From Myxococcota bacterium (lineage in GTDB: Bacteria > Myxococcota > Kuafuiibacteriia > Kuafuiibacteriales > Kuafuiibacteriaceae): a stretch of DNA of 64,000 nucleotides. The position numbers and the translations under genes are program-made. Location of the stretch: contig JBHJGZ010000009.1 of the NCBI GenBank assembly GCA_050331295.1, forward strand, positions 279,950 to 343,949. The letters are read 5' to 3'. Below the pieces are notes generated by a model. The model was not told the origin of the DNA and did no database searches. It saw only the letters and a list, made by a program, of their open reading frames with translations. Positions 1 through 45,602 of the stretch are shown here, in pieces. Position 1 is the stretch's first letter. The number at the start of each line of letters is the position of its first letter.

Positions 1-123
1 GAGCACGTGTCCATCCAGGAACAGCTGGGTGATGAGCTTGGACAAGTTCAGTCCGGAATCCTCCGTCTGCACGTGGAACACCCGCGCCTGATGGCGGACG
101 TTGTGATTGAAACCCGGGAGCAT
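1..123 (-). CDS. hypothetical protein, N-terminal fragment (gene runs off the left edge)
   Basis: Too short for the ORF track. The reverse complement of 1-123 reads ATG (123-121) MLPGFNHNVRHQARVFHVQTEDSGLNLSKLITQLFLDGHVL with no stop up to the window edge and mostly G/C third positions. It is divergent from the next gene. No family recognised. Confidence 0.3.
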   Translation of the reverse strand, partial: MLPGFNHNVRHQARVFHVQTEDSGLNLSKLITQLFLDGHVL

Positions 124-292
124 GGGGCTCCCCAGCAGGTTAGCGGCAAACATTTGTAGTTGCCAGAACCCCAAGCCGATGCGACCGTATGAAAGGACTG
201 CGGGGGTTTTCTGGGTGTCTAGGCACAGCTTGAGACGGCCATTTCCAGGTACAGAGCCCGCCCCGGAACACCGAGAGCTCCCGGCCCATCCC

Positions 293-9401: not shown

Positions 9402-9454
9402 GCATTCTTGACCCTACAGCGTTGACCCCAGTCGTCTCCGAGACTGCAGCATCG

Positions 9455-10609: not shown

Positions 10610-10635
10610 TCGGGGAAGGGAGGCGGTCGATTGAG

Positions 10636-11397: not shown

Positions 11398-11452
11398 GGT
11401 GCTTCGAGCAACCCAAAATGGACCGAAAGGTTTCGAAGAGGACCGAAAAAAG

Positions 11453-12265: not shown

Positions 12266-12396
12266 GGAACGGCCCCTACTCGAGGTGGGGCGCGACGTCG
12301 AACCGCATCGACGCCGGGGATCACTGGACATCGGTCTGCGCGCTGCATCCAGAATCCAGGGGTGCATCGAAACGGTGAGGGACCCTCCATTAACCC

Positions 12397-14655: not shown

Positions 14656-14687
14656 CCTCACAGCTTCGAAGCGCGTTCGTCGCATCC

Positions 14688-16232: not shown

Positions 16233-16713
16233 TTCCATCTCTTTGGATGAGCCCGGCTTGGTTCATTTGGCCGGCGCGATGGCCCGTCATTTCGCCCATC
16301 GAATGGCGCCGAACGATACGGTCTTCATCGGACTGTCAGGGGATTTAGGTGTAGGGAAAACTACGTTCGTCCGCGGATTCGTGTCCGGTCTTTCGGCCGA
16401 GGCAGGTCTCGACGTGACGTCGCCGACTTTCGCCCTCGTGCATCGATATGAGTGTTCTCCGCCGGTGTGGCACTTGGACCTGTATCGGCTCGCCCCCGAC
16501 GACCTGATGGAACTCGGTCCGGACGAGCTGTTTTACCAGCCGGGCTTCGTTCTGGTGGAGTGGGCCGAGCGCGCTGCTGCCGTCTGTCCGCGTGACCGGG
16601 TCGAGCTCGACCTGACGGTGGAATCGGATGAGAGACGGACCCTGAAGTGGGGTGTTCCGGAAGGGTGGAGGAGCGAGGCTCTGCTGGCCGCCTTACGGAC
16701 TGCGTCGGATTGA
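16219..16713 (+). CDS. tsaE: tRNA t6A37 biosynthesis ATPase TsaE
   Basis: In track ORF 15754-16713. ATG 16219 overlaps the nnr end by 14 nt. P-loop GLSGDLGVGKTTFVRG, TSPTFALVHRY, HLDLYRL. Confidence 0.9.
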   Translation: MASPDSISLDEPGLVHLAGAMARHFAHRMAPNDTVFIGLSGDLGVGKTTFVRGFVSGLSAEAGLDVTSPTFALVHRYECSPPVWHLDLYRLAPDDLMELGPDELFYQPGFVLVEWAERAAAVCPRDRVELDLTVESDERRTLKWGVPEGWRSEALLAALRTASD

Positions 16714-16909
16714 AGCGTCGGCTTCCCGAGGAATCGAAGGGGCGACCGCGGGGTCGCAACCTGCGCTCGACCGACCACAAACCGGCGGGACGAACGCCCG
16801 ACGGGACGTTTGGTGCGATCCGTTCGCGCCGCGAGACGGCTTGCGGATCAGGTCGACAGGCTGGGCTGAATCTAGTAGGGACCGCATTCCCAATCAAAGC
16901 AGGGCCTTC

Positions 16910-19141
16910 ATGAACAACAGCAACGACATCAGCGTCGGGCAGCAGTCGCCGTACACTGCTGCGTCTTCGACGGGCAGAGACGGCGACGACGCCAACCATC
17001 ACAACGGGCACCGAGAACCGGTGGCCCACGAAGCGTCCGCCGAAGCCGCCCGACCGACGACCGACGCAGAGGCCGAGGGTGCACAGCCCGAGCCCGAAGG
17101 CCGGAGCGCGGAACCGGAGGCTGGCACGGTCGAACAGAAGCCGGAAACGGAGGAGCAAGTCCTGACGACCGAGGCCGGCTCAGCGCCTTCTGGCGCCCAC
17201 ACCGCATCCGCCCAAGAGGAAACATCCGCGGCGCCGGCCGAAGTCCCGGAAACCACCTCGAGTCAGGCTGCCGCCGCTTCGAGGCCGGCCCCGGAGGCCG
17301 CTTCGAGCCCGGCCCCGGAGGCCGCTTCGAGCCCGGCCACGGAGGCCGCTTCGAGCCCGGCCACGGAGGCCGCTTCGAGCTCGGCCACGGAGGCCGCTTC
17401 GAGTTCGGCCCCGGAGGCCGTTTCGAGCCCGGCCCCGGAGGCGGCTTCGCGCCCGGCGGCGGAGGCCGCTTCGAGCCCGGCCCAGGAGGCCGCTTCGAGC
17501 CCGGCCACGGAGGCCGCTTCGAGCTCGGCCCCGGAGGCCGCTTCGAGCTCGGCTGCCGAGGTCGAAACACCGCTTGCAGCGTCCGAAACGCGCGGCGACC
17601 AAATGGAAGCGGCGCTCGACCTGAAGGTGGGCAAGCCAGAGCTCCCAGCGGAAGGCGAAATGAGCTTCGCGGAGATGTTTGAGCTTGCCGAAAAACAGTC
17701 TCAAGAAAAGCGGCGCAAACTGAAAGCCGCCATCGGTAGCGATCTCAGGCCCGGTCAGATCATCTTCGCGAAGGTCGTGAGCATCAGCCACGATTCCGTC
17801 TTCGTCGACATCGGCGCGAAGGCGGAAGGCGTCATCCCAAAGTCAGAGCTGGAGGAAGAAGGGCAGGAGCTCCAGCTCAAGGAGGGTGACAAGGTCGAAG
17901 CGCGGATCCGCAAGATCGAGGGAGGTTCGGTCCAACTTGGACGGGTTCCCGCGCACCTCAGCCTACGAAAGCGGGAGGAGCTCAAAGAAGCCCACAGAAC
18001 CAAGATTCCCGTCGATGGTGTGGTGCAGGCGACCAACAAGGGCGGCTTCGACGTGGACGTATCGGGAGTCCGGGTGTTCTGTCCGGCCAGCCAGATGGAC
18101 GTGCGTCCCGCGAAGGCTGAAGCCTACATCGGGAAGAAGTTTCCCTTCGTCATCGTCGAATTCAAGGATGGCGGCCGCAATATCGTCGTGTCCCGGCGGC
18201 AGCTTCTCGAAGAAGAGAATCGACGAAAGGCAGAGCAGGTCCTCTCGGAGATCACCGAGGGTTCGGTCCGGACCGGGACCGTGACCACGTTGAAAGACTA
18301 CGGTGCATTCGTCGACCTGGGAGGACTCGAAGGTCTCGTCCACGTGACCGAGATATGCCACGGGCACATCAACAAGCCCAATCAGGTCCTCAAGCTCGGT
18401 CAAGAGGTCCAGGTTCAAGTGCTGAAGATCGAGGAGCCCAAGGATGAGAAGAAGAAGGGCCAGCCCGACCAACAGAAGATAAGTTTGAGCATCAAGGCCC
18501 TGCAGGAAGATCCGTGGGCACGGGCCAAGGATGAAATCCGAGAAGGAACGCGGGTGTCAGGGAAGGTGGCCAGGTTGACCAAATTTGGTGCGTTCGTGGA
18601 GCTCTATCCCGGTGTCGACGGCCTCATCCACATCTCCAACATGACCCTCGACCGCCGCGTTCACAATCCCGGAGACGTGGTGAAGGTCGGAGAAGAAGTC
18701 GAGGCCCGCGTGATGAGCGTGGATTGGGACAAACAGCGAATCGGCCTTTCGCTCGTCAAGACCCCTCAGGAGCTCGCGGATGAGCTGAAACAGGGGAAGG
18801 TCGTGGAAGGCAAGGTCGACCGCATCGAGGACTTTGGGGTGTTCGTGAGATTGCCCAACGGTGCCCGGGGCTTGGTGCCGGCGCGCGAAACGGGAACCGG
18901 TCAAGGCTCCGACCTCAAGAAGGTGTTCAATTCCGGCGAGCAGGTCAAAGTGCTCGTTCAAGACGTGGACAGGAAGAGCGGTCGCATTCGGATGTCCATT
19001 CGCGCCGCCCGCGAAGCGGAAGAGCGGGCCGAGTATGCTGGATTCATCAACAAGGACCCGTCTGATGGGAAGGGATTGGGTACGTTGGGGGACCTGCTGA
19101 AAGGCAAGCTGAGTCACCTTCGAAACAACATCGGCGAGTGA
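16910..19141 (+). CDS. rpsA: 30S ribosomal protein S1-like protein with about 300-aa low-complexity N-terminal extension
   Basis: Track ORF 16652-19141; ATG 16910 (MNNSNDISV). Five S1 domains are readable: GQIIFAKVVSISHDSVFVDIG, VDGVVQATNKGGFDVDV, GSVRTGTVTTLKDYGAFVDLG, GTRVSGKVARLTKFGAFVELY, GKVVEGKVDRIEDFGVFVRL. The symbol is tentative. It may be an S1-domain paralog rather than the ribosomal S1. Confidence 0.8.
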   Translation: MNNSNDISVGQQSPYTAASSTGRDGDDANHHNGHREPVAHEASAEAARPTTDAEAEGAQPEPEGRSAEPEAGTVEQKPETEEQVLTTEAGSAPSGAHTASAQEETSAAPAEVPETTSSQAAAASRPAPEAASSPAPEAASSPATEAASSPATEAASSSATEAASSSAPEAVSSPAPEAASRPAAEAASSPAQEAASSPATEAASSSAPEAASSSAAEVETPLAASETRGDQMEAALDLKVGKPELPAEGEMSFAEMFELAEKQSQEKRRKLKAAIGSDLRPGQIIFAKVVSISHDSVFVDIGAKAEGVIPKSELEEEGQELQLKEGDKVEARIRKIEGGSVQLGRVPAHLSLRKREELKEAHRTKIPVDGVVQATNKGGFDVDVSGVRVFCPASQMDVRPAKAEAYIGKKFPFVIVEFKDGGRNIVVSRRQLLEEENRRKAEQVLSEITEGSVRTGTVTTLKDYGAFVDLGGLEGLVHVTEICHGHINKPNQVLKLGQEVQVQVLKIEEPKDEKKKGQPDQQKISLSIKALQEDPWARAKDEIREGTRVSGKVARLTKFGAFVELYPGVDGLIHISNMTLDRRVHNPGDVVKVGEEVEARVMSVDWDKQRIGLSLVKTPQELADELKQGKVVEGKVDRIEDFGVFVRLPNGARGLVPARETGTGQGSDLKKVFNSGEQVKVLVQDVDRKSGRIRMSIRAAREAEERAEYAGFINKDPSDGKGLGTLGDLLKGKLSHLRNNIGE
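17270..17557 (+). repeat. 12 tandem in-frame 24-bp repeats (consensus gaggccgcttcgagcccggccccg; peptide EAASSPAP)
   Basis: Read directly. Units start at 17270, 17294, 17318 ... 17534 and encode AAASRPAP EAASSPAP EAASSPAT EAASSPAT EAASSSAT EAASSSAP EAVSSPAP EAASRPAA EAASSPAQ EAASSPAT EAASSSAP EAASSSAA. Contiguous, with no spacers. Confidence 0.95.
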
Positions 19142-20691
19142 CCGACCCCGGTTCCCGCCATTCTCGAGAATCACGCACTCCCGAAGATTTCGTCTCTGCC
19201 TCTCCAGAGGGGTCCAACCCGTCGGGTCCGGCAGCAGGGCGATTGGCCGGCCTTGCCGTTGGGGCGGTCGCGATCCTCTCCTCTTATCTTCCCGTAGCTC
19301 TGCCGGCCGGGCTCGAGCCTGCTGCGGTTCGGTTGATCGGTATCACCCTGACGATGGGCATCTGGTGGGTGACTGAAGCCTTGCCGATTGGTGCGACCGC
19401 TCTCGTGCCTGCGGCCACCTTCCCGCTCCTCTCCATCGCGCCCGCCCGTCCGACCACTCAGGCCTACATGAGTCCCATCATCATGCTCTTGTTTGGCGGC
19501 TTTCTGATGGCCCTGGCCGTGGAGCGGTCCAATGCCCATCGACGCCTTGCGCTTCACGTCTTGCTTGGGCTCGGAACCTCGCCGCGACGCTTGGTGCTGG
19601 GCTTCGGCGTGGCAGCTGGTCTGATGTCGATGTGGATATCCAACACCGCCACCTCGCTTCTCATGATGCCGATTGCGGTAGCGGTGGTGAATCAAGCCGA
19701 ACGAGAGGGAGGCGATGGTGCTCGAGCGGTCCACCGATTCGGAATCGCGATCCTGTTGGCGGTCGCATATGGCGCATCGGTCGGCGGGATGGCGACTCCG
19801 GTCGGCACGCCCCCCAATCTCATCGCCATGGCGGCTTTGGAACGGACCCAGGCGTCGACCTTGACGTTTGCGACTTGGTCGCTCCGGGCGTTGCCGGCGG
19901 TGGTCATCATTCTCCTGCTGGTGTGTTGGGTTCTGGTGAAGGTGTCACCCGGAGTTTCGGCGCGCCTCGCACTCGGTGCAGAGGAGTCGCTGCGAAGGCA
20001 GCTCGGTACGCTCGGGCCATGGAGGCCTTCCGAATGGCGCTCCCTTGCGGTGTTTGCGTGTGTGGCGGTCCTGTGGATCACTCGACCGGATCTCCAGTGG
20101 GGAGCGGACACGACGGTGCTCGGTTGGGCCAGTCGTCTCGGTTTGCAAGGCACCCACGATGGTACCATCGCCATGCTCGGGGCTCTATTGGTCTTCCTTC
20201 TCCCGGATGGAGAGACAGGTGAACGTCTGCTCCCTTGGTCGACTGCGCAGAGGGCACCGTGGGGTCTGTTGCTCCTGTTCGGGGGTGGTGTGTCTCTGTC
20301 GGTAGGCTTTCAAGCCACGGGCCTGAGCGAGTACCTCGGGAGCTCGATGGCCGCCTGGATCGGCGCATCGTGGCCCCTTTTCGTCGCCCTAGTCTGCCTC
20401 GGGTGTACGTTTGGCACCGAAATCATCAGCAATACTGCCCTCGCCAACATCGCCATGCCCATCCTTGTGGCCACCGCTGTGGCCGCCGACCGGGACCCAC
20501 GCGGTCTTCTTCTCGCGTCCGCGATGTCCTGTTCCTGTGCGTTCATGATGCCCATGGCCACCGGGCCGAATGCCATCGTATTCGGGTCGGGTCGCCTCCG
20601 GGTCGCCGATATGGTCAGGGCAGGACTGCTCTGCAACCTGCTGGCCTGGGCCGTGATCGTGGCTGCGGCGATGATATCCTACCCAAATTGA
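19138..20691 (+). CDS. DASS/SLC13 family anion:sodium symporter
   Basis: 517 aa polytopic membrane protein. The GTG start overlaps the S1 stop (GTGA). GIWWVTEALPIGATALVP, SNTATSLLMMPI, SNTALANIAMPI (duplicated SNT hairpin motifs). Confidence 0.85.
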   Translation: MTDPGSRHSRESRTPEDFVSASPEGSNPSGPAAGRLAGLAVGAVAILSSYLPVALPAGLEPAAVRLIGITLTMGIWWVTEALPIGATALVPAATFPLLSIAPARPTTQAYMSPIIMLLFGGFLMALAVERSNAHRRLALHVLLGLGTSPRRLVLGFGVAAGLMSMWISNTATSLLMMPIAVAVVNQAEREGGDGARAVHRFGIAILLAVAYGASVGGMATPVGTPPNLIAMAALERTQASTLTFATWSLRALPAVVIILLLVCWVLVKVSPGVSARLALGAEESLRRQLGTLGPWRPSEWRSLAVFACVAVLWITRPDLQWGADTTVLGWASRLGLQGTHDGTIAMLGALLVFLLPDGETGERLLPWSTAQRAPWGLLLLFGGGVSLSVGFQATGLSEYLGSSMAAWIGASWPLFVALVCLGCTFGTEIISNTALANIAMPILVATAVAADRDPRGLLLASAMSCSCAFMMPMATGPNAIVFGSGRLRVADMVRAGLLCNLLAWAVIVAAAMISYPN

Positions 20692-20752
20692 GACGGTCCT
20701 GGTGACGAGGGCGACCTTGCGGATCCACCGGACCGCACACTAAAAGCTTCGT

Positions 20753-21352
20753 ATGCGCTCCCTGCTCTCGCTCGCATCGCTGACGTTGATGGCGTTCTTG
20801 TTTTCGGCCTGTGGGTCCATCAAGTCCGATTTCGATGAGACGATCGACTTCACTGCGGAAATCGTCGATGACGAAGCACTCTACAATGATTTCGAGTTGT
20901 TCGACCCGAACGACAACGAAGACTTTCGCGACAACAAAGACGACATCGAAGACGGCCAGATTCGTCGCATCACGATCACCATCCTCGAAACCTTTCCGTT
21001 CGACCCAGTGCTTCCGCACCAGGCCGATGTGGGAGTTGGACAAATCGATATACGGGCGGCACCGGAAGACGCAGAGGTGCCTCCGGCCGAAGGATTCGAG
21101 CCGAACCAACTGGATGAGATTCCGGGAGACCCTTTCATCCAAGCGGTTGGAAGATTTGACCCGGTCACCTTGGTGCCGGGGGAAAGCTTCGACCTGGATC
21201 TGAATGAAGAAGTATTGGCCGAGGTTCACGAGCTGTTGTTCGACCGGGCTGGTCCGATGGAGGTGCGCTTCTTTGGCCTGGCCAATGATGGGCCCGTCAA
21301 CTTCACCTTTGAGGTCGAGATTCTCGTGACGTTCAAGGCGGTCGTCTTCTAG
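20753..21352 (+). CDS. hypothetical acidic lipoprotein
   Basis: 199 aa. MRSLLSLASLTLMAFLFSACGS (lipobox FSAC). Asp/Glu-rich. No family recognised. The antisense ORF 20615-21421 was rejected. Confidence 0.6.
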   Translation: MRSLLSLASLTLMAFLFSACGSIKSDFDETIDFTAEIVDDEALYNDFELFDPNDNEDFRDNKDDIEDGQIRRITITILETFPFDPVLPHQADVGVGQIDIRAAPEDAEVPPAEGFEPNQLDEIPGDPFIQAVGRFDPVTLVPGESFDLDLNEEVLAEVHELLFDRAGPMEVRFFGLANDGPVNFTFEVEILVTFKAVVF

Positions 21353-21377
21353 GAATCGCAGTTTCTGACCCATTCGG

Positions 21378-22685
21378 ATGGCGTACGACCCCGTCTCCCG
21401 AAAAGGCCTTGCGTTCATCAAGGATGCACTCCTTGATGAGCGGGTGTCCGCAGCTGAGGACGGTGCAGGGCCCGCGAGCCCTGCGGTGGACGAAGACGGC
21501 GAGAACGGGGCCCAAACGCCCGAGCCGAAGCCGCCTCGTCAGAAGAAGAAGCCGGGCAAGAAGTCCGCGCGTGCCCGGTCATCCTCGGGGTCGAAGGGGC
21601 GGACCTCCAAGTCCAAGACGACCGCTGAAGATGCATCCAAAGCAGAAGACGCCCCCGAACCGGAGCTGATTGCCGAACCCTCCAAGGAACTGGACGACGA
21701 AGTTTCGGACACAGAAGACGATGAACCAGAGGTGCTGGACGTCCCGACCGGAGCGACACTCCCGTCGCTTCCGTCGATTCCAAGCACATCCAGCAAGAGT
21801 GTGGGCTTGTCTGCGCCGGCCGCTCGAGCCACCGGGCTGGAGCGCTTTCTCGCGGAGGTCGGGCGTTATCCGGTACTCACTCCAGAGGAAGAGCGCGAAT
21901 TGACCCTCGCCTACTACCAGCGGCAAGACCCCATCGCTGCACGAAAATTGGTCGTTCACAACCTGAGACTCGTGGTCAAGTTGGCCTACAAGTACCGACG
22001 AGCTTGGACGAGTATCCTGGATCTCGTTCAGGAGGGAAACGTAGGGCTGGTTGAAGCGGTCGGACGCTTCGATCCTTTCAAAGGGGCCAAATTCTCGACC
22101 TACGCTACATTCTGGATACGAGCTTACATCCTGCGTTTTCTGCTCGAACACAGTCGTACGGTTCGTCTTTCCCGAACGCGCGTGGGTCGAAAGCTCTTCT
22201 TTCAGCTGTCGCGTGAAAGGGCGAAACTGAGGGCGCAGGGCATCGAGCCGGGACCGAGGCTTTTGGCGGAGAGACTGGGTGTCGACCAGGGCGAACTCGA
22301 GGAGGTGGTTCGGCACATGGACCAGCCGGAGGTGAGGCTCGACGCCCCGATGAGCGAGGAGGGAAGCGGCGCAACGCTCCTCGACAGCATGACGGCTGAA
22401 GGCCACTCTCCCGAAGCAGAGACCTTCCGAAGAGAGCTGACCGAAGATGTGTCCGAAGCGCTCAATGCATTCGCAGAGACCTTGCAAGATGAACGCGAAG
22501 TTGCAGCCTGGGAAGAACACCTGCTGAGCGAGGACCCTGTCAGCCTGTCCGAACTCGGAGCTCGATTCGGAGTGACCAAGCAGCGGATGGGTCAGATCGT
22601 GGCCGGGATCCGCAAACGTCTCAAAGGGCATCTGGTTGAACGACTCGGTCCTGACGTCGAGCTCGGCTTTCAATTCGACGAATAG
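21378..22685 (+). CDS. RpoH-like (sigma-32 family) RNA polymerase sigma factor with about 155-aa charged N-terminal extension
   Basis: 435 aa. Region 2: VVHNLRLVVKLAYKYRR, DLVQEGNVGLVEAVGRFDPFKGAKFSTYATFWIRAYI. RpoH-box-like VGRKLFFQLSRERAKL. Region 4.2 HTH LSELGARFGVTKQRMGQI. The N-terminus is Lys/Ser then Asp/Glu rich. Confidence 0.88.
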   Translation: MAYDPVSRKGLAFIKDALLDERVSAAEDGAGPASPAVDEDGENGAQTPEPKPPRQKKKPGKKSARARSSSGSKGRTSKSKTTAEDASKAEDAPEPELIAEPSKELDDEVSDTEDDEPEVLDVPTGATLPSLPSIPSTSSKSVGLSAPAARATGLERFLAEVGRYPVLTPEEERELTLAYYQRQDPIAARKLVVHNLRLVVKLAYKYRRAWTSILDLVQEGNVGLVEAVGRFDPFKGAKFSTYATFWIRAYILRFLLEHSRTVRLSRTRVGRKLFFQLSRERAKLRAQGIEPGPRLLAERLGVDQGELEEVVRHMDQPEVRLDAPMSEEGSGATLLDSMTAEGHSPEAETFRRELTEDVSEALNAFAETLQDEREVAAWEEHLLSEDPVSLSELGARFGVTKQRMGQIVAGIRKRLKGHLVERLGPDVELGFQFDE

Positions 22686-22738
22686 CGGCGCGAAGTCTCG
22701 AGTGACAAGCGGCTTCCCATGGCCGAGGATGCCGCGCC

Positions 22739-24484
22739 GTGACCGGACTCCTCGGCGTTTTTACATTGGACCCGGCTCGACCCAGTTCGAACCGGCGCCT
22801 TGAATTTCGCTCGTCCGGAGAAGTACGTCGGTTTTCGGGGGGGTGTATCGCTCTTTCCATGGCTGGCGAAGATCGGACGTCAGGCATCGCTGGCGACAGT
22901 GCCGGGGATGTGACGGTGGCTTTCGTCGGCGAACTGTTCAAGCCTGACGCTCTTCGAAGCGAGCTGTCTACGGCGGAGCAGCCCTACGATTCAGCCTCAC
23001 TCCCTTCCATGGTCGCCGCAGCATATCGGCAGTGGGGCTCCGAATGTGTTCACCATCTAGACGGTGCATACAGCCTTGCGCTGGTCGACCATGTACAGCA
23101 CGCTTTGTTCCTCGCGCGAGACCGCTTCGGTCATGTTCCGCTGTTTCTGGGCGGGGCGGCGAAGGAGGACCTGGCAGAAGTCTGCTTTGGAACGCATCTC
23201 CATGAAATGATTGGATCCGGACTGGCCTCCAGTGTGCTCGAGCCAGACGCAGTGGTCTTGTTCTTTCAGTATGGCTTTGTGCCGAGTCCCTGGACCTTGC
23301 TTCAGGATGTCGAAGCTCTTCCGCCGGGCGGAGCGTTCATCATAGACCGGAACGGCGTACATCGTGGAGTTCGTCCGGTGCAATGGGCGGAGCCCGATGA
23401 CATCGCTCCTTGGCAAGAACAGCTCACCGCCACTGCCCATGCACTGAGTGAATCCATCCAAACCCGCGTCGCGCCCGGGACTTCTTGCGGTGCGTTCTTC
23501 TCGCCCAATCTCGTGGAGCAAGCTCTGGCTGGCTCGTTCGTTCGGGATGTTGGGGCGGACCTTCGGGTCTATGGCCCCTCTCGTCCCGAGGGGGATGCGG
23601 CATCGCGTGCCGCAGAATCATTGGGTTTGACGTACACTGCGATTCCCCTCGAACCCTCGGCCGATCGGTGCAAGCAAATCGCATCCACGTTGGCCTCTCC
23701 GCGAGCTGGACCCGAGATTGTCATCCTGGATACGCTCCTCGATGCCTGTCGCTCCGAGAGACGGACATGGTTCGACGCCGTCGCGGGCGACATCTTGTTC
23801 GGAGCGGGACGCCCCTACGCCGAAGCACTGCTTCGGAACGCGATACGACGAACCATGCCGCTCTTGTTCAACTCTTCGCGTCTCGCACCGGTGCGGCGCA
23901 TGCTTGGGCTCACCGCCAAGGATTCGGTCGAGGTTCTCTTCAGGCGAGATCTGACCACCCTTCTGCACGAGGATTTTGGAGGAACAGATCGCTGGGATAT
24001 CGAGTTGGGTTCGGGCGGCACGGTGGCCGAACTTCAGAAAGTGGACCTGCGCTATGGATTGGGAGACGACCGGTTGCCGGCCGCTTGGGCCCTCGCCCGA
24101 ATCCACGGGGCTCAGGCTGTGTTTCCCTTCGCCGACGCGGCTGTTGTCGAGAGCATTTCACGATGGCCGTTGCGAATGCGGTTCCAGGAACACGACGAAG
24201 CACCGGGACTTCGAGCCCTGGCACGTCGTGTGCTGCCCGGCCGAGCGTTCGAGCCGTCGCGTACATCGGCGGTTGCGGTCGATCATTGGTTCCGCGGTCC
24301 CCTCCGTGACCTGACCCAGAGCGCCCTTTTCGACCGCGACGGTGGATGGAGCGGGGTTCTCGATTCGCGGCGAGTCCGAGCACTTTGGTACGCCCACCAG
24401 CTCGGGCTCAAAGACCATGGGCGATCCCTATTCGCGCTGCTGAGCTTCGAACTTTGGTGTCAGCATGGGCTTTATCGAGGATAG
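22739..24484 (+). CDS. asparagine synthase (AsnB)-like protein lacking Cys nucleophile and PP-loop (probable pseudoenzyme)
   Basis: 581 aa, GTG start. The N-terminus MTGLLGVF replaces the AsnB MCGI(A/L)G. LDGAYSLALVDHVQHALFLARDRFGHVPLF is typical of the GATase-7 domain. The synthetase PP-loop position reads CGAFFSPNLVEQ instead of SGGLDS. Confidence 0.72.
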   Translation: MTGLLGVFTLDPARPSSNRRLEFRSSGEVRRFSGGCIALSMAGEDRTSGIAGDSAGDVTVAFVGELFKPDALRSELSTAEQPYDSASLPSMVAAAYRQWGSECVHHLDGAYSLALVDHVQHALFLARDRFGHVPLFLGGAAKEDLAEVCFGTHLHEMIGSGLASSVLEPDAVVLFFQYGFVPSPWTLLQDVEALPPGGAFIIDRNGVHRGVRPVQWAEPDDIAPWQEQLTATAHALSESIQTRVAPGTSCGAFFSPNLVEQALAGSFVRDVGADLRVYGPSRPEGDAASRAAESLGLTYTAIPLEPSADRCKQIASTLASPRAGPEIVILDTLLDACRSERRTWFDAVAGDILFGAGRPYAEALLRNAIRRTMPLLFNSSRLAPVRRMLGLTAKDSVEVLFRRDLTTLLHEDFGGTDRWDIELGSGGTVAELQKVDLRYGLGDDRLPAAWALARIHGAQAVFPFADAAVVESISRWPLRMRFQEHDEAPGLRALARRVLPGRAFEPSRTSAVAVDHWFRGPLRDLTQSALFDRDGGWSGVLDSRRVRALWYAHQLGLKDHGRSLFALLSFELWCQHGLYRG

Positions 24485-24511
24485 AGCCACCACAGAGCGG
24501 ACGTTGACGCC

Positions 24512-26692
24512 ATGTCCGTCGAGGGTCACTCTCCCGAGGTGAACGAATCGCCCAAGGAGGGAGCGGCGGTTCCATCCGTCGCCGACGACCTTCGTCGTTG
24601 GCTTCGGGACTTCGTCAAAGGCATCAAAGGTCTGAGAGTCTATGCGTCCAACAACGAGACGCTGCATCGCTATCTTCAGGATGTCTACTCTGGTCTGAAC
24701 CATCTGCTCGAGGAGCAGGGCGAGTTCACGTTGATGGTGCGCGAGGATCGGTTGATGCACCAAGGCGTCGATGTCTTGGTAGAGCCTGACCGACTCGAAG
24801 GACTGCCCTTTCTGCTCTTTCGAAACGCGTTCCGGCGTCTCACTTTCATCCGGGGAATGCAGCCCGAAGAGATCGTAAGTTTGATGCGAGCAATCACCAC
24901 GGATTACGCAGTGTACGACGGAGCTGGGGAGGATTTGGTGACCGCATTGTGGCGTCTGCAGCTGCCCCATCTTCGTTACGTAACCATTGATACCCTGACC
25001 GCAGAAGCCGGAATCGTACGGTCCTCCGACGAGCGGGCCGAGATCGAACGACTCCAGGGCGACATTGAAAATATAGTCGCAGCTGTCTATAGAAACAGTC
25101 TCACCGGAAGCGACATCGTGTCGGGCTTGTCCATCTCCAAGGAGGACTTGCACGCGCTCCGAGAGGTCCAAGAAGAACCTGAAGAAGAACTCGAACGTCT
25201 CGACCAGATGAGCGCGCGGGCTGTCCTGGACATCGATCCTGGAGAGCTGAACCTCTTCAAACAAGACTTGATGCAGGAAGGGCGCGACCGAATCATTCAG
25301 CGCACCATGGACGTTCTAGTCCGCATCCTCTTCAACGAACGTTCAGGACGAGAGGCTTTCGGCGCTGTCTCTCTGCTGCAACAGTTGCTCGACGCTTTGC
25401 TTCTCGGACAGCGTTTCGTTCATGCAACCGAGCTGGTGCGGCGTCTGCATCGCTCCGCCCAGGATGGTGACAACCTCCAAGAGCTCCATGTATCTCGCCA
25501 GCTACTGCTGCTCTTCGCGAACAAGAGTCGGATCATTCCCTTGCTGGCAGGTCTCAATGACCGGGTCGTTTCTCGATCGGTTTCGGAGCTCTTGGGCTTC
25601 CTTCGGGCGTTGGGTCCTAACACCGTGCCGGGTCTGTTGGCGGTGCTGCCGGACATTGAATCCCCGGTGCATCGTCGGGTGATCAAGGATTTGATCATCG
25701 AGCTGGGCGTTCCCAGCATGCCTGAACTTCTACAGGCCTCGCGAGACGCAGAGTGGTTCGTGCTTCGGGATATATTGGCGATGGCAGAGCATCACCCGCC
25801 AGAAGACGCAGCCATCATCGTGGAGCATGCGATCGAGCACCCTCACCCGCGTGTTCGGGAGGCAGGAACGAAGATGCTGAGGAACTATGGCTTTGGCGCG
25901 GCTGACGATCGTCTTGCGATCATGCTTCGTGACACAGACCACGACGTGAGGAAGGCGGCTCAACGTCTCGCCGTGGTGCGTGCTGCGCCCGTACTGGTGG
26001 AGGAGCTCCGCCGGCAGGTCGAAGAAGCTGAGGTAGGCAAGGATCCTCGGGAACTTCGTCATCTGTATCGAGCCTTTGCTGCGACGGCCCAAGGCGATGC
26101 GGTCGAGGTTCTGGTCAAGATCCTGAACCAGAACGTGTTCTCGTCCCTGAAGAATGCGGATGCGCCGGTGGCGGCAGCGATGGCCCTAGGAAACATCGAA
26201 GACGATGCGGCCCGCGCCGGTCTTCAGCGTGGGACGCGGTCGTTGGTGGCTCGGATCCGTGAGGCCTGCCGCAGAGCGCTCGAGCGCCGTCGTGGAAGCG
26301 AGACCGTGACGCTGGATCTGGATGAGTCTTCGGGGGATTTGATGGCATTCGATATCGATGGGAGACCCGATTTCGTGCCTGCTCCGCCTTCTTTCCCTGA
26401 GTCTGCCCCGATTCCCTCCGTGAACCCGGAGCCCCCCCAGCTATCGACTCTCTTTCATCGTCGGGTCGATCTCCCCGGTGACCACATCCCGGATCCGTAT
26501 CCAGAACCCACGGTCGTGCCGAGCGCCCTCACCGACGACCTCGTCCTGACGGACGAGCTGCCTCTTTTGGCCGATTTCGCCTCGAAGCCTTTGAAAGAAA
26601 GGGAGACCAAGCCGTCCTCTCCTCCCATCGAGCAGGAGGTCCTTTTGGACATCGAGTTCTTGTTGCCGACACCCAAGCCGGAGGATTCATGA
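24512..26692 (+). CDS. HEAT-repeat protein, function unknown
   Basis: 726 aa. HEAT/PBS-lyase-like repeats around HPHPRVREAGTKMLRNYG and LRDTDHDVRKAAQRLAV. Pro-rich acidic tail. The stop overlaps the next gene's start (ATGA). Confidence 0.6.
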   Translation: MSVEGHSPEVNESPKEGAAVPSVADDLRRWLRDFVKGIKGLRVYASNNETLHRYLQDVYSGLNHLLEEQGEFTLMVREDRLMHQGVDVLVEPDRLEGLPFLLFRNAFRRLTFIRGMQPEEIVSLMRAITTDYAVYDGAGEDLVTALWRLQLPHLRYVTIDTLTAEAGIVRSSDERAEIERLQGDIENIVAAVYRNSLTGSDIVSGLSISKEDLHALREVQEEPEEELERLDQMSARAVLDIDPGELNLFKQDLMQEGRDRIIQRTMDVLVRILFNERSGREAFGAVSLLQQLLDALLLGQRFVHATELVRRLHRSAQDGDNLQELHVSRQLLLLFANKSRIIPLLAGLNDRVVSRSVSELLGFLRALGPNTVPGLLAVLPDIESPVHRRVIKDLIIELGVPSMPELLQASRDAEWFVLRDILAMAEHHPPEDAAIIVEHAIEHPHPRVREAGTKMLRNYGFGAADDRLAIMLRDTDHDVRKAAQRLAVVRAAPVLVEELRRQVEEAEVGKDPRELRHLYRAFAATAQGDAVEVLVKILNQNVFSSLKNADAPVAAAMALGNIEDDAARAGLQRGTRSLVARIREACRRALERRRGSETVTLDLDESSGDLMAFDIDGRPDFVPAPPSFPESAPIPSVNPEPPQLSTLFHRRVDLPGDHIPDPYPEPTVVPSALTDDLVLTDELPLLADFASKPLKERETKPSSPPIEQEVLLDIEFLLPTPKPEDS

Positions 26693-28116
26693 GTCCGCCG
26701 CCTTCGAGTTCGAAGCTCCAAAACCTCGCTCGATTGTTGATCATGCAGCTCCATATGGTGCTGCGGACGTTTCGAATCCACGAGCCGGGAAATCGGGCGC
26801 TGCTGATCGCCACCGAGAATCTTCGGGATACCATCAACACACTTTGGGCCTCGTTGGATGGCGCAGTCCGCCTTCAGATGGTGGAGGGCGTCGCCTATCT
26901 GAATGATGTGCGCGTCCGCTTGGATCCGACCCTGAAGACACAAGTCGATTATCTGCAGGATCAGTTTGCTCAACGCCGTATGGGGGGCATCGGCTTTTCA
27001 CGACCGGTGGACGCCGAGGCTCTTCGCGCCTTCTTGGTCACCCTCACCCGACCGGTAGAGGGGGATGAGGATGTAGCGCAACTCAAGGAGTCGCTCCTCA
27101 GGTTCCGAGAGCTGGCATTGGAGCTTCTCGACCCAAGGACCTTTGTGGAGGAACACCAAAGCAGCGATGACGATCTTCGGGTCGACCGGAGGACGTTCGC
27201 TTTGCAGGCTTACGCCAAAGGAGTGGTGGCCTTCCGGGAAGCTGTCGAGGCGCTCCGAAAGAAGGATGGTCACCCCGCTCGTCTTAATGCCACCCGCATC
27301 GTCCAGGATCTGGTCGACGTGGGTACCGAACGCGTCAATTTCTTGCTGCGCCTGGGCGCGATCAAGAGGGCCGACCAGTATGCCTACAATCACGCCGTCA
27401 ACGTCTGCATCTTGTCGGTGGTCATCGGTCGCGCCCTAGGGGTTGAACGCGTTCATCTCGTGGACCTCGGGGTTTCGGGCCTCTTCTCCGACATCGGCTT
27501 TGCGCTGATGCCGCCTAGTCTGATCGAGCAGAGCAGAGATCTCAGCCATGAAGAGAAGGCCGCCGTCTTGACCGACATGCTCCGTGAGGTTCGCGCAACC
27601 TTCGCCGGTCATCGTGTGACCGACGCCATGATGATGCGGGTCGTGGTCGCGTACGAGCATCACCTGCCCTACCGGGATCCCCTCCGGACGAGACCGCTTC
27701 ATCCCTACTCTCGCATTGTTGCGGTCGCGGATGCGTTTGACGCACTTACCACCTCACGGCCCTGGCGGGACGCGTATGCCGCGGACGAGGCTCTGCGTAT
27801 CTTGAGCCAAGAGTCAGGGGATCGATTCGATCCGCTCGTGGTCCGCGTTTTGGTCAATCTGATGGGCGTATATCCCTTGGGGTGTCCCGTGCAGCTCGAG
27901 TCAGGCGAGGTGGCCGTGGTGTACCACAGTTCCCACGAACCACAGTTCTTTGATAGACCGTGGGTAAAGGTCGTCCAGACAAGCCATGGTGATCGAGTCC
28001 GTCGTACGTTGATCAGGAATCTGGCCGCGACCGACGGTCCGGCCGGTCGCGTCAAACGAATCTTGCGTCCTCAGGAAGTCGAGGATTTCGACCCTGCCAT
28101 GACGATCGTTTTCTGA
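26689..28116 (+). CDS. HD-GYP-related domain protein with degenerate metal-binding/GYP motifs
   Basis: 475 aa. YNHAVNVCILSVVIGRALG (first His). LFSDIGF where LHDIGK is expected. EHHLPYRDP where HHExxDGxGYP is expected. Conserved IVAVADAFDALTTSRPWRDAY. Confidence 0.78.
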   Translation: MSPPPSSSKLQNLARLLIMQLHMVLRTFRIHEPGNRALLIATENLRDTINTLWASLDGAVRLQMVEGVAYLNDVRVRLDPTLKTQVDYLQDQFAQRRMGGIGFSRPVDAEALRAFLVTLTRPVEGDEDVAQLKESLLRFRELALELLDPRTFVEEHQSSDDDLRVDRRTFALQAYAKGVVAFREAVEALRKKDGHPARLNATRIVQDLVDVGTERVNFLLRLGAIKRADQYAYNHAVNVCILSVVIGRALGVERVHLVDLGVSGLFSDIGFALMPPSLIEQSRDLSHEEKAAVLTDMLREVRATFAGHRVTDAMMMRVVVAYEHHLPYRDPLRTRPLHPYSRIVAVADAFDALTTSRPWRDAYAADEALRILSQESGDRFDPLVVRVLVNLMGVYPLGCPVQLESGEVAVVYHSSHEPQFFDRPWVKVVQTSHGDRVRRTLIRNLAATDGPAGRVKRILRPQEVEDFDPAMTIVF

Positions 28117-28167
28117 GGCCGTCGATTCGCACTTGATTCGGTGTGTCTCTCGTTTCACACGGCGCGT

Positions 28168-28806
28168 ATGCCACTTCACCTCGGAAAACCAGTTCCAAAC
28201 TTCCAACAGGATAGCACCGAAGGTCGCATCGATTTCTTCGAGTTCCTGGGCAACAGCTGGGGCGTGCTGTTCTCGCACCCGGCGGACTTCACTCCGGTTT
28301 GCACCACCGAACTCGGTGCGGTCGCCAAGCTCAAGTCTGAGTTCGAGAAGCGAAATACGAAGGTCATTGGTCTGTCGGTCGATCCCGTTGATTCCCACCA
28401 CGAATGGGTAAAGGACATCAACGACACGCAACGGACGACCGTGAACTTTCCGCTCATCGCGGACCATGACCGCAGCGTGGCGAAGCTCTATGACATGCTC
28501 CCGGACGACGCACCGGATACGATGACGGTGCGCAGCGTCTTCATCGTGGATCCAAAAAAAGTTCTCCGTCTCACGCTGACCTATCCAGCGTCCACCGGTC
28601 GCAATTTTCAGGAGATCCTACGGGTCATCGACTCGCTTCAACTCACCGATCATCATAAGGTGGCAACCCCTGCCGACTGGCAGCACGGTGATCGAGTCGT
28701 GATCGTTCCGTCGCTTCGGGATCCAGATGAATTGGCGAAGCGTTTTCCGCAAGGCTTCGACGAGCAGCGTCCCTATCTGCGGCTCACCGACCAGCCCAAG
28801 GACTGA
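28168..28806 (+). CDS. 1-Cys peroxiredoxin (Prx6 type)
   Basis: Track ORF 28141-28806; ATG 28168 (MPLHLGKPVPNF). WGVLFSHPADFTPVCTTELG with peroxidatic Cys. Length about 212 aa. Confidence 0.93.
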   Translation: MPLHLGKPVPNFQQDSTEGRIDFFEFLGNSWGVLFSHPADFTPVCTTELGAVAKLKSEFEKRNTKVIGLSVDPVDSHHEWVKDINDTQRTTVNFPLIADHDRSVAKLYDMLPDDAPDTMTVRSVFIVDPKKVLRLTLTYPASTGRNFQEILRVIDSLQLTDHHKVATPADWQHGDRVVIVPSLRDPDELAKRFPQGFDEQRPYLRLTDQPKD

Positions 28807-28807
28807 A

Positions 28808-31024
28808 CTATTCCAGAATGAGGTCGGTAGTCCGATAAGCCGCTGTCGGAAACTCATCCTCATCCAACCTTCGCATCGCCTCCATCAGCAGGTAGGTGTT
28901 CGACGCGTACAGATTCGCCGGGACGTCGACGGCCCGGTAGACGATGCGGAATCGACCGGTCCCCGGCATCGCCATACGAAAGAATTGTTCCTCCGCGGAC
29001 GGCTCAGCCGGCTCGACGCGATGAAGTCGTCCTTGGGCGATGAATATCCGGCCCTTCCTGCCATCGTCGTACTGCAGCTGCAGCTCGGCGTTCTTCCCGC
29101 CGACTTCCAGATTTTGCACCAAGTCCACGAGGGGCATCGCGGAGATGTCCCCGGAAACAACCGCTGGGACCGGTTCTGCCGGGAGGCGAGACGTCCCCAT
29201 CGCGCGTTGGGCCGCGCGACGGAGCTTCGAGACGGTCGGCTCCAGGGCCAACGGCTTCAAGAGGACATCCTCGGCTCCGAGCTCCAGAGCTCGCGCCTGA
29301 TGCGCATCGTCACGACGCCGGGAGCTGATGAACACGATGGTGTCCGGACTCTTGCGACGGGCCTCCAGAAGAAGATTCAAGCCATCCAGCCGAGGGAGTG
29401 CCGCATCGAACATGGCGACGACGACATGATGGTCGCCGAGGACCGAAAGCGCTTTCCGACCATCGTCTACTACCTGCACATCGAGATCCTCGGCCATCAG
29501 TCTTCGAACCACCTGCTGACAAGCCTCGGGGTCGGCATCGGCCAAGAGCACGATTCGCCGTGAGGACGATGCCTTAGGTTCGTGTATCGGATACCATCGG
29601 CTGAGGAGCTGCTGAAAACCTGACCGACTGGTGACCGCAGGCAACACGGACTTCACCCCGAGAACCACCATGAGTTCTAGCCTCCTTTGGGATTGCGCCG
29701 GATCGGCGGTAACCACGTGGGCCACTCCATTCGGTTCGATCAGGAAAGGGATCGATAGCGTCAGCTCGGCCGCGTCTCGAGGAAAGCGTCGTTGAAGGTT
29801 TGGGGGTGGTTCGAGTTCGCTCAGCTCGGCGGGCGCCAACCACCGATAGCCGAGCTGGTTGGCCACCGCTCGTGCGATGACGTCCTCGTCAACCATCTCC
29901 ATCTGAATCAGCACGTCTCCCAGCCGGCCTCCGCGAGCCCTCTGTTCGGCCAATCCCAACTGGAGGTCGTCCGAGCTGATGTGTCCGGAGTCGCGGAGGA
30001 CCTTGCCAAGCAGTGGACGAGGGGGTGGCTCGACGCCTCCGAGACCGGTGTACGCCGAAACCGAGGGGACCCTCGAGTTCAGCTGCCGGTCGACCGGGCT
30101 AACGAAGTGCCGCTGCATATACACCGCAAGGTCTCGTGGGGAGGCTTTCCGTGGCATCCGCTGTGATGCTCGCGTCAGCTCTCCCAGGAATGCCCCGACC
30201 GTTTGAAAGCGCAAGTTGCGGTCTCGTTCCAGAGCCCGACCGCAGATTTCATCCACTGCGTCCGTCACCTCCGAATTGATGGAGGAGGGCCGGGGAATGG
30301 ATTTGTGAACGACTTGCTCGACCGTCTCTTCTGGGTGACTGCCTCGGAACAATCGCTGACCTGTCAGCATCTCCCAGAGTACGACTCCCGCACTGAAGAT
30401 GTCCGACCGCTGGTCGATCGCAAGCCCTTGTACCTGCTCCGGGGACATGTATCCAAACTTCCCATGCAGGTTCCCTGGCAACGCATCGTTCTTCTCGGTC
30501 ACGACCCGAGCGATGCCGAAGTCGGTAACCTTCACTTCGCCTTCGTACGAAATGAGAATGTTCTGAGGTGAGATGTCGCGGTGAATGATCCCGAGCGGCA
30601 CGCCCTCGTCGCTTCGCTTTCGGTGGGCGTAGTCGAGACCAGAGAGAAACTCGGTAGCGATGCATAGAGAAATGTCGGCTGGAATCAGGTCTTTCTGGCG
30701 ATAGGCCCGAGAAAGTACCGCCGCGACGTCTCGACCTCGAACGTACTCCATCGCCAAGAAGACTTGGCCATCGATGGCTCCGAGATCGTGCACCTGAACG
30801 ATGTTGAAGTGCTGCAGATGAGCGGCAAGTTTAGCTTCGTTGATCAGCATGCGAACGAAAGTCTCGTTGCCGCTGTAGCGAGGCAGGATGCGTTTGAGGG
30901 CGAGCTGCTTCTCGAAGCCCGAGTATCCATGTCGCTTTGCTCGAAAGATCTCGGCCATGCCTCCATCGCCGATGCGCTCCAAGAGGACGTAGGGACCGAA
31001 GCGCAGTGCGTCGGACGAGGACAC
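28808..31024 (-). CDS. Ser/Thr protein kinase fused to T2SSE_N/MshEN-like domain, receiver (REC) domain and DUF4388-like domain
   Basis: 738 aa. Kinase: GDGGMAEIFRAK, LALKRI, IIHRDISPQNIL, VTDFGIA, GYMSPEQ. aa 338-390: LLGKVLRDSGHISSDDLQLGLAEQ-RARGG-RLGDVLIQMEMVDEDVIARAVANQ. REC: IVLLADAD, AMFDAALP, VFISS, LLKP. C-terminus: SGDISAMPLVDLVQNLEVGGKNAELQL...GRIFIAQGRL. Confidence 0.9.
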   Translation of the reverse strand: MSSSDALRFGPYVLLERIGDGGMAEIFRAKRHGYSGFEKQLALKRILPRYSGNETFVRMLINEAKLAAHLQHFNIVQVHDLGAIDGQVFLAMEYVRGRDVAAVLSRAYRQKDLIPADISLCIATEFLSGLDYAHRKRSDEGVPLGIIHRDISPQNILISYEGEVKVTDFGIARVVTEKNDALPGNLHGKFGYMSPEQVQGLAIDQRSDIFSAGVVLWEMLTGQRLFRGSHPEETVEQVVHKSIPRPSSINSEVTDAVDEICGRALERDRNLRFQTVGAFLGELTRASQRMPRKASPRDLAVYMQRHFVSPVDRQLNSRVPSVSAYTGLGGVEPPPRPLLGKVLRDSGHISSDDLQLGLAEQRARGGRLGDVLIQMEMVDEDVIARAVANQLGYRWLAPAELSELEPPPNLQRRFPRDAAELTLSIPFLIEPNGVAHVVTADPAQSQRRLELMVVLGVKSVLPAVTSRSGFQQLLSRWYPIHEPKASSSRRIVLLADADPEACQQVVRRLMAEDLDVQVVDDGRKALSVLGDHHVVVAMFDAALPRLDGLNLLLEARRKSPDTIVFISSRRRDDAHQARALELGAEDVLLKPLALEPTVSKLRRAAQRAMGTSRLPAEPVPAVVSGDISAMPLVDLVQNLEVGGKNAELQLQYDDGRKGRIFIAQGRLHRVEPAEPSAEEQFFRMAMPGTGRFRIVYRAVDVPANLYASNTYLLMEAMRRLDEDEFPTAAYRTTDLILE

Positions 31025-31056
31025 CGACCCATTTTGTACTGTACGCTTCGACTCCT

Positions 31057-31070
31057 GGCCAGATCTGGCC
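31057..31070. repeat. perfect 14-bp palindrome GGCCAGATCTGGCC in the divergent kinase/polA intergenic region
   Basis: Read directly at 31057-31070. It lies between the kinase start (31024, minus) and the polA start (31151, plus). Function unknown; operator-like. Confidence 0.4.
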
Positions 31071-31150
31071 CTTCAAATACGGAGCGGATCCTGGAGGCGT
31101 GAGATGGCATTTCAGTTGAACCTGAAAGCGGTTCCCGTCACACATGGGCC

Positions 31151-45586: not shown

Positions 45587-45602
45587 TGAGAGGAGCCGGG
45601 TG

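Follow-up and report, generated by a model that had tools for sequence, protein, structure and literature searches.

A conserved pair of HEAT-repeat and degenerate HD-GYP genes downstream of an RpoH-family sigma factor in an uncultured Myxococcota bacterium

Introduction

What does an alternative sigma factor have to do with three consecutive downstream genes whose products look like a scaffold or like enzymes stripped of their catalytic residues? The question is raised by a compact plus-strand cluster in a 64,000-nucleotide stretch (the window, numbered from its first letter) of contig JBHJGZ010000009.1, from an uncultured Myxococcota bacterium found in stromatolite and microbial-mat metagenomes. 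Its five genes encode, in order, an acidic lipoprotein, an RpoH-family sigma factor, a homologue of AsnB (AsnB*), a HEAT-repeat protein (HEAT) and a degenerate HD-GYP protein (HD*). An earlier, sequence-only reading of the window took the close spacing to suggest an operon, and the last three proteins to be a dedicated partner-switching, anti-sigma or signal-sensing module behind the sigma factor. Comparison with relatives leads elsewhere. With slightly better than even confidence, the cluster is taken here to be a composite locus left by gene loss and no sigma-dedicated module, with HEAT and HD* as a scaffold that would sense a cyclic nucleotide and modulate a Ser/Thr kinase. For the comparison 54 loci (handles with the prefix L) were gathered with an HD-like protein as anchor, and the window genes were mapped onto them by tblastn together with public gene calls.

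A conserved pair with a related N-terminal domain

The conserved core of the cluster is its last two genes. HEAT immediately precedes HD* in all loci whose upstream sequence is long enough, and the 4-nt overlap of the HEAT stop with the HD start recurs in L002, L004, L028, L030, L032, L034, L035, L039 and L049, which include members of both phyla concerned. HD* is 49-75% identical to its counterparts in the nearer Myxococcota clade, 42-48% to those of a more distant group and about 30% to those of the Thermoanaerobaculia. The distant Myxococcota pairs that adjoin rnpA/dnaA have 42-44% identity, and no sigma gene was found near the pair in the examined flanks (at most 10 kb, long loci) of the distant L002, L020 and L024 or of the Thermoanaerobaculia. 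The two genes, coupled in translation and shared by the Myxococcota and Thermoanaerobaculia, form an ancient pair.

HEAT matches Pfam HEAT_2 at 29.9 bits against a cutoff of 27.7, and its AlphaFold2 model (mbf846a5a5235) has an alpha-solenoid at residues ~200-585 with predicted local distance difference test scores above 90; Foldseek matches of the model are alphaRep, ARM and importin structures. The description of HEAT as a scaffold in the sequence-only reading agrees with both the domain match and the modelled solenoid. In front of the solenoid is an alpha/beta domain, and HD* also begins with one. BLASTP finds no match between the two N-terminal regions, and their kinship is visible only to profile methods and structure models. 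Alignment by hhalign of HEAT 25-198 with HD* 12-179 gives E 5.5e-5 over 163 columns at 66% probability; many HD-like proteins are matched in their N-terminal part, at 1e-4 to 1e-8, by positions 12-85 of the HEAT profile; and the AlphaFold2 models of both N-domains (that of HD* is meec004e75022) have the same alpha-alpha-beta-beta-alpha-beta-alpha topology. These profile comparisons and models indicate that HEAT and HD* share a homologous N-terminal alpha/beta domain of ~150-170 aa. Pfam and NCBIfam have no match at E<=0.01 over the N-domain of either protein.

A profile of the N-domain gathers 811 clusters among 1.84 billion representatives (clusters at 50% identity). Many family members keep the canonical HDxGK and GYP motifs, and the N-domain family as a whole is therefore not dead. 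Gene fusions among its long members link the same components: HEAT::HD-like fusions occur in two independent clusters (P0297/P0446 and P0361), one such fusion being a 1400-aa gene on a 6.9-Mb contig, and there are at least eight fusions of an HD-like protein to a Pkinase domain (P0266, P0277, P0286, P0309, P0334, P0351, P0356 and P0365).

A fused HEAT::HD-like paralogue of 1400 aa is encoded at 8001-12203 of L054 and carries ~360 extra C-terminal residues. Its neighbours are type VI secretion genes (Hcp, ClpV, a faint VipB match and VasJ) and a two-component system.

Each component of the cluster is of a known kind: an RpoH-family sigma factor, an AsnB-family pseudoenzyme, a HEAT scaffold and a degenerate HD-GYP protein. 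The sequence-only reading could name no described system of this composition, and none surfaced here; literature searches on HEAT with HD-GYP, on PATAN, MshEN or DUF4388 in Myxococcus and on degenerate HD-GYP receptors turned up neither the HEAT/HD-GYP pair nor the shared N-domain or the kinase fusions. PomY, a HEAT protein of Myxococcus xanthus, was considered and dropped, as its genomic context differs and an HD partner is missing. An anti-phage defence system was also considered and rejected: PADLOC gave no match for AsnB*, HEAT or HD*, with generic kinase and sigma matches only, and the region is a conserved core chromosomal one.

The fold and active site of HD*

HD* matches Pfam HD_5 at 57 bits (cutoff 27.2). 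Profile matches in the PDB (5z7c, 4mcw) and Foldseek matches of its model (PmGH 4mcw, Bd1817 3tm8, PA4781 4r8z and DvhD 9rbz) agree that the fold predicted for HD* is still that of HD-GYP proteins. This fold is common to HD*, Bd1817 of Bdellovibrio, PmGH, PA4781 and V-cGAP3, and Bd1817 is likewise unconventional.

The active site is another matter. Canonical HD-GYP phosphodiesterases have HDxGK, a further His, the HHExxDGxGYP motif and a bi- or trinuclear metal site, whereas HD* has SD in place of HD and is without the Lys, the equivalent of PmGH H250 and GYP. At the HDxGK site it reads LFSDIGF, with both His and Lys gone. Ala or Ser stands in for the dyad His throughout the ~30 Myxococcota orthologues, and the Lys and the H250 equivalent are also lost. 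The GYP loop is deleted in the window clade, with EHH kept (HHLPYR----DPL); distant orthologues keep GGYP, and those of the Thermoanaerobaculia keep HD and GYP. HD* retains the first His, HH, the Asp of the dyad and that at the end, together with RPWR, which is invariant.

There is a precedent for loss of this kind. DvhD of Desulfovibrio vulgaris (9rbz/9rc0) has an inactive, metal-free HD-GYP domain, with HD changed to SQ and HH to MN, that binds cyclic di-GMP (c-di-GMP) as a receptor (PMC13090378). The HD* model matches it in Foldseek with E 2e-5 and a template modelling score of 0.66 on the target. The two differ in much else. DvhD sits in the membrane, has periplasmic and PAS domains and controls a Lap-type protease and adhesin, whereas HD* is soluble, has another N-domain, keeps HH, and is accompanied by a HEAT partner gene and by kinase association or fusion; its nucleotide binding is a prediction. 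In the reuse of a dead c-di-GMP-turnover domain as a sensor for a surface machine HD* would also resemble the FimX-PilZ-PilB and LapD-type receptors of general knowledge, but those have GGDEF/EAL folds and other partners, with neither a HEAT protein nor a Ser/Thr kinase.

A kinase beside the pair

Convergent with the cluster, and outside the five genes on which the sequence-only reading dwelt, is a gene for a Ser/Thr kinase that also has MshEN, REC and PATAN (DUF4388) domains (Table 1). The protein has 738 aa, and its kinase motifs are intact (HRD at 148, DFG at 168). The MshEN domain matches Pfam at 36.9 bits against a cutoff of 23.1, and its 24-mers at 338-361 and 367-390 are each 1-2 positions off the published relaxed motif, with no strict match. 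MshEN is a c-di-GMP receptor domain that is also present in Ser/Thr kinases (PMC5013675). The PATAN-REC combination of cyanobacteria is described in a preprint as targeting the type IV pilus motor (bioRxiv 10.1101/2021.06.11.447907).

Most loci, in both phyla, have a kinase, REC, MshEN or PATAN protein next to HEAT/HD*. The kinase gene is convergent and directly downstream in most nearer Myxococcota loci; in the Thermoanaerobaculia locus L028 a co-directional REC-kinase gene begins 1 nt past the HD-like stop; and the paralogous locus L035 has a divergent MshEN-REC-PATAN protein. The kinase is likely the third component of the module. The 1-Cys peroxiredoxin gene that separates it from HD* in the window is present only there and in L004, L015 and L053, the kinase elsewhere following HD* directly, and is a lineage-specific insertion outside the module.

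The variable block between sigma and HEAT

If the pair is the constant part of the locus, the stretch that separates it from the sigma gene is the inconstant one. The relatives of the nearer clade have from 1 to ~9 kb of variable genes there. The large-genome relatives (L051/L049, L052/L008, L048/L017 and L023) have one or two sets of four prepilin-type genes, with a G|FTLIE motif, matches to GspH/FimU-, PilV- and GspK/PilX-like families and a FimU/PilV/PilW/PilX-like order. After the pilin sets come a ~1050-aa protein in the PilY1 position, a PEGA protein, a FemAB-family protein (TIGR03019 at 375 bits, over the cutoff) and an intact AsnB, in that order. Partial blocks consist of pilins, FemAB and AsnB in L009 and L012 and of FemAB and AsnB in L001, L013 and L016, and in L018 there is nothing between sigma and HEAT. 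Within the 64-kb window there are no pilin, PilY1-position, PEGA or FemAB genes, and the AsnB homologue alone remains. The window cluster is what remains of a once larger pilus/envelope locus. It is because of the loss of intervening genes that sigma adjoins AsnB*, and that the pattern of a sigma factor followed by pseudoenzymes arises. Among related genomes the neighbourhood is conserved in parts, namely the HEAT/HD* pair and the lipoprotein and sigma genes, but not in the stretch from sigma to HEAT.

The order of four prepilin genes and then a large protein resembles that of the minor-pilin/PilY1 clusters of type IV pili (M. xanthus clusters 1-3, PMC7541494; Pseudomonas aeruginosa fimU-pilVWXY1E), but such genes are wholly missing from the window and their link to HEAT/HD* is one of position only. 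The PilY1 match of the large protein is faint and seen in one homologue only.

In L052, a 6.9-Mb contig of a metagenome-assembled genome (MAG), two tandem four-gene minor-pilin sets lie at 9356-15180, directly downstream of the RpoH-like sigma gene. They encode proteins of 197/195/375/174 aa and 212/197/365/173 aa that are pairwise 41-47% identical.

AsnB*, from enzyme to pseudoenzyme

AsnB* has both GATase_7 and Asn_synthase Pfam domains over the cutoff. Its N-terminus is MTGLLGVF, with Thr for Cys1, against MCGIVG in intact orthologues; the HRRLSIID region is deleted, and SPNLVEQ is aligned where the PP-loop SGGxDSS is expected. Its best NCBIfam match, TIGR03108, reaches 139 bits against a cutoff of 816.9 (an intact orthologue has 770 bits), and TIGR01536 84 bits with a cutoff of 267. 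As far as these matches go, homology to class II amidotransferases is certain, and membership among the enzymes is not. The possibility that profile searches would place the cluster's proteins in active enzyme families has a divided outcome: the AsnB of relatives is an intact XrtA/PEP-CTERM-type amidotransferase but the window copy is not.

Intact orthologues of ~649 aa, with MCG, HRRLSIID, SDTE and SGGxDSS, are encoded in L001, L008, L009, L012, L013, L016, L017 and L050. Dead copies are those of the window, L053, L004, L005, L006, L010 and L049; they have 555-592 aa and T, G, S or A as residue 2, and their PP-loop is broken or absent. A FemAB gene precedes intact AsnB in all eight loci and is missing with all seven dead copies, and the AsnB gene is lost entirely in L018 and L023. 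A rough neighbour-joining tree of HD* suggests that inactivation took place independently two or more times. Compared with the closest relative, AsnB* has 43% identity (its neighbours 66-80%) and a nonsynonymous divergence (dN) of 0.58 (neighbours 0.15-0.27), and it is the fastest-evolving gene of the region, at 2-3 times the rate of its neighbours; relative dN and amino acid identity are used since synonymous divergence (dS) is saturated (1.2-2.3) even with the closest relative, making dN/dS unreliable.

Judged by its motifs, AsnB* is a lineage-specific dead derivative of an XrtA/PEP-CTERM-type (TIGR03108-like) glutamine amidotransferase. It evolves under relaxed constraint, with some constraint left because the open reading frame (ORF) is intact in seven diverged genomes. 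The dead shell may be kept for an accessory role as a subunit, or it may merely be in slow decay. The likeness to the XrtA/PEP-CTERM pair of FemAB (TIGR03019) and amidotransferase (TIGR03108) lies in the top match of AsnB* and in its orthologues, which in relatives adjoin a TIGR03019 protein; the window protein differs in being without Cys1, the PP-loop and the FemAB partner. The loci showed neither XrtA nor PEP-CTERM genes.

At 11462-12331 (plus strand) of L035, a paralogous HEAT/HD-like locus from another Myxococcota MAG, a 289-aa PP-loop ATPase with weak Asn_synthase, QueC and NAD_synthase matches comes right after the HD-like gene. It is a second, independent association of a PP-loop fold with a HEAT/HD pair and might bear on the retention of dead AsnB.

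The lipoprotein, the sigma factor and the layout of the window

The lipoprotein has a signal peptide, the lipobox LFSAC and a theoretical isoelectric point of 4.05 (44 Asp and Glu against 11 Lys and Arg). Orthologues with the conserved Cys are upstream of sigma in L001, L004, L006, L013, L016, L018, L051, L052 and L053. Other genes part the two in L051 and L052, and in L053, the closest relative (HD* 75% identical), a minus-strand gene stands between them. The lipoprotein is a conserved neighbour upstream of sigma and no obligate operon member. In the nearer Myxococcota clade, where the region was retrieved, both genes lie downstream of yjeF-tsaE-rpsA(-CitMHS), and they are conserved core genes there.

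The intervening gene of L053 (4522-4902, minus strand) encodes 126 aa with a weak 2Fe-2S ferredoxin match; being on the opposite strand, it breaks any lipoprotein-sigma operon in that genome. The ribosomal protein S1 homologue of the window (ORF 16652-19141) has a 24-nt unit repeated 11.7 times (91% matches) at 17273-17553, which encodes a low-complexity (A-A-S-S-P-A-P/T-E)n stretch within a long N-terminal extension. S1 is shorter in the gene calls of L001, L051, L052 and L053, at 526-673 aa.

The sigma factor, in which Pfam finds Sigma70_r2 and r1_2, has as its top NCBIfam match RpoH TIGR02392, aligned over the full length (181 bits, cutoff 323.1), followed by NF005143 at 173 bits (cutoff 241). 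The RpoH box is Q(R/K)(K/R)LFFNLR, and a similar GRKLFFQL is found at residue 270, and likewise in the orthologues. The protein resembles RpoH (sigma-32) in its best family match, in the full-length alignment and in this motif; it differs in scoring under both cutoffs and in a low-complexity N-terminal extension of ~150 aa ahead of a ~285-aa core. The orthologues, which are named sigma-32 by the Joint Genome Institute, are 58-78% identical.

In the extension (window 21378-21830) a basic Lys/Ser/Arg-rich patch, PRQKKKPGKKSARARSSSGSKGRTSKSK, alternates with a strongly acidic one, DDEVSDTEDDEPEVLD; the acidic part recalls region 1.1. Extensions of varying length are present in all of the sigma orthologues (300-470 aa in total).

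The ORF coordinates (Table 1) reproduce the five same-strand genes of the sequence-only reading, with intergenic gaps of 25, 53 and 27 nt and then the 4-nt ATGA overlap; in public gene calls HEAT starts 9 codons later (717 aa), and the gap after AsnB* is 54 nt. Domain scans and motifs also uphold the five identities that were given (lipoprotein, RpoH-family sigma, AsnB homologue without Cys1 and PP-loop, HEAT protein, and SD-type HD-GYP protein without GYP), and with them the loss of catalytic signatures from the AsnB-like and HD-like proteins: Cys1 and the PP-loop are gone from the one, the HDxGK His and Lys and GYP from the other. A scan of 16000-31500 for sigma-70 promoters returned 0 sites. 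Terminator-like hairpins are no more frequent than in shuffles; a weak one is at 28128-28145, just past HD*. The cluster has no sigma-32-type promoter pattern, and one match elsewhere in the window is at chance level.

Table 1. Genes, domains and the coupling junction of the locus. Nucleotide positions are those of the window; domain boundaries are in residues.
Feature	Position	Strand	Size or basis
Acidic lipoprotein	20753-21352	+	199 aa ORF
RpoH-family sigma factor	21378-22685	+	435 aa ORF
AsnB* (AsnB-like)	22739-24484	+	581 aa ORF
HEAT-repeat protein	24512-26692	+	726 aa ORF
HEAT alpha/beta N-domain	residues ~14-160		717-aa model P0388 (ORF residue minus 9)
HEAT solenoid	residues ~200-585		717-aa model P0388 (ORF residue minus 9)
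HEAT Pro-rich disordered tail	residues ~596-717		717-aa model P0388 (ORF residue minus 9)
HEAT/HD* translational-coupling junction	26680-26692	+	Shine-Dalgarno GGAGGA 26680-26685, ATGA stop/start overlap 26689-26692; read from sequence
HD* (degenerate HD-GYP protein)	26689-28116	+	475 aa ORF
HD* alpha/beta N-domain	residues ~6-145		
HD* HD-GYP fold	residues ~225-395		
HD* beta-rich C-terminal domain	residues ~400-460		
1-Cys peroxiredoxin	28141-28806	+	Pfam; between HD* and kinase
Ser/Thr kinase-MshEN-REC-PATAN (DUF4388) protein	28808-31024	-	Pfam domains

Farther along the window, two tandem plus-strand ORFs at 41639-45586 and 45600-50132 (1315 and 1510 aa) both match Met-zincin (DUF4953) weakly. 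They are in the lowest-GC stretch of the window (0.54-0.57 against ~0.61) and could be a duplicated pair of secreted proteases or acquired DNA.

Discussion

In the proposed mechanism HEAT and HD* would form a heteromeric scaffold, probably by way of their paralogous N-domains. By analogy with DvhD, HD* would bind c-di-GMP or a related nucleotide without hydrolysing it, a binder being suggested in place of a hydrolase because two metal-binding His, the Lys of HDxGK and the GYP loop are lost. The complex would then modulate the adjacent Ser/Thr kinase, which itself has an MshEN domain of the c-di-GMP-binding type together with PATAN-REC. The ancestral output was probably surface behaviour, either type IV pili or exopolysaccharide; this is suggested because the module adjoins minor pilins and PEP-CTERM-type envelope enzymes in relatives, a link of position and of one clade. 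A more ambitious version is doubtful, if possible: that a HEAT/HD* heterodimer joined through the unnamed N-domain, whose family spans Myxococcota and Acidobacteriota at least, is a new and widespread cyclic-dinucleotide-sensing module signalling to a Ser/Thr kinase, with control of type IV pili or exopolysaccharide as its ancestral output and with the dead AsnB shell recruited in this lineage as a third, non-enzymatic subunit.

Several observations count against a composite locus with a nucleotide-sensing scaffold. In the nearer clade, every flank or contig that was examined has sigma upstream and in the same orientation. The homology of the N-domains is, by hhalign alone, put at 66%. The Myxococcota kinase gene is convergent, not co-transcribed with HEAT/HD*. 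The type IV pilus link is confined to the nearer clade and is missing around L028 of the Thermoanaerobaculia and the distant Myxococcota pairs. In HD* the first His, dyad Asp, HH and final Asp may, to judge from the residues, leave room for residual metal binding or hydrolysis. The sequencing runs that hold the sequence are DNA only, from stromatolite and mat metagenomes; RNA runs were looked for and none was found, and no cultured member was seen among the matches.

The first of these points also speaks for the sigma-centred model, in which AsnB*, HEAT and HD* would together serve the RpoH-like sigma as its own anti-sigma, partner-switching or signal-sensing module and the five genes would be one operon. 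The genes are on one strand at close spacing, no terminator or sigma-70 promoter was detected inside the cluster, and in the nearer clade sigma precedes HEAT/HD* in the same orientation, either directly, as in L018, or within ~9 kb. Yet the pairs of L002, L020, L024 and the Thermoanaerobaculia are without a sigma gene in the flanks examined, the stretch from sigma to HEAT varies to the point of including whole pilin operons, and the L053 minus-strand gene splits lipoprotein from sigma. Pfam and NCBIfam scans of the five proteins gave no anti-sigma, STAS, RsbW/SpoIIAB-type kinase or PP2C domain, and sigma-related domains never occur in the fusions, which tie HD* to HEAT or to kinases. Control of RpoH-type sigmas is exerted by DnaK/J and FtsH, and dedicated anti-sigma factors are not known for them. 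On these grounds a sigma-dedicated module is not supported, and the model is judged quite improbable.

Two further alternatives concern single proteins and have more in their favour. HD* could still be an enzyme: a hydrolase of HD-GYP fold, non-canonical in having a reduced metal site, with c-di-GMP, cyclic GMP-AMP or another nucleotide as its substrate and HEAT as its regulatory subunit, by analogy with trigger phosphodiesterases. H235, D268, H324/H325, D351 and RPWR are invariant or nearly so, conservation of the protein is very strong, and the motifs of an active enzyme persist in the Thermoanaerobaculia orthologues and in many members of the wider N-domain family. The replacement of the dyad His throughout the ~30 Myxococcota orthologues, the loss of the Lys and the H250 equivalent, the deletion of the GYP loop in the clade and the inactive, metal-free state of DvhD after comparable losses (PMC13090378) make this unlikely. 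That AsnB* is functionless, a slowly decaying relic with a meaningless place in the cluster, deserves more weight, if short of an even chance: it evolves faster than any other gene of the region, L018 and L023 have dispensed with it, and its enzymatic partner FemAB is lost. Against a relic stand the full-length ORF, free of stops and frameshifts, in at least seven diverged genomes, a catalytic loss that the rough tree suggests to have occurred at least twice, the well-conserved C-terminal third and the constant place directly upstream of HEAT; dN/dS is ~0.3, with dS saturated. The reading preferred here, a HEAT/HD* scaffold at a locus reduced by gene loss, is compatible with either fate of AsnB*.

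The locus shows how gene loss can yield what appears to be an operon of a sigma factor plus pseudoenzymes without such an ancestry. It also offers, in AsnB, a clean natural series from enzyme to pseudoenzyme, intact where the FemAB partner is present and dead once it is lost. That degenerate GGDEF and EAL domains serve as c-di-GMP receptors is well established, and to our knowledge the first structurally proven receptor of the HD-GYP type is DvhD, in 2026. The present locus points to a second and much larger group with the HD-GYP fold, characterized by an unannotated N-domain, an obligate HEAT partner with a paralogous domain, and recurrent fusion or adjacency to kinases. Myxococcota and Acidobacteriota are very rich in Hanks-type kinases, and little is known of what those kinases sense. 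If the proposal is true, cyclic-dinucleotide signalling and signalling by Hanks-type kinases would be directly connected in both phyla.

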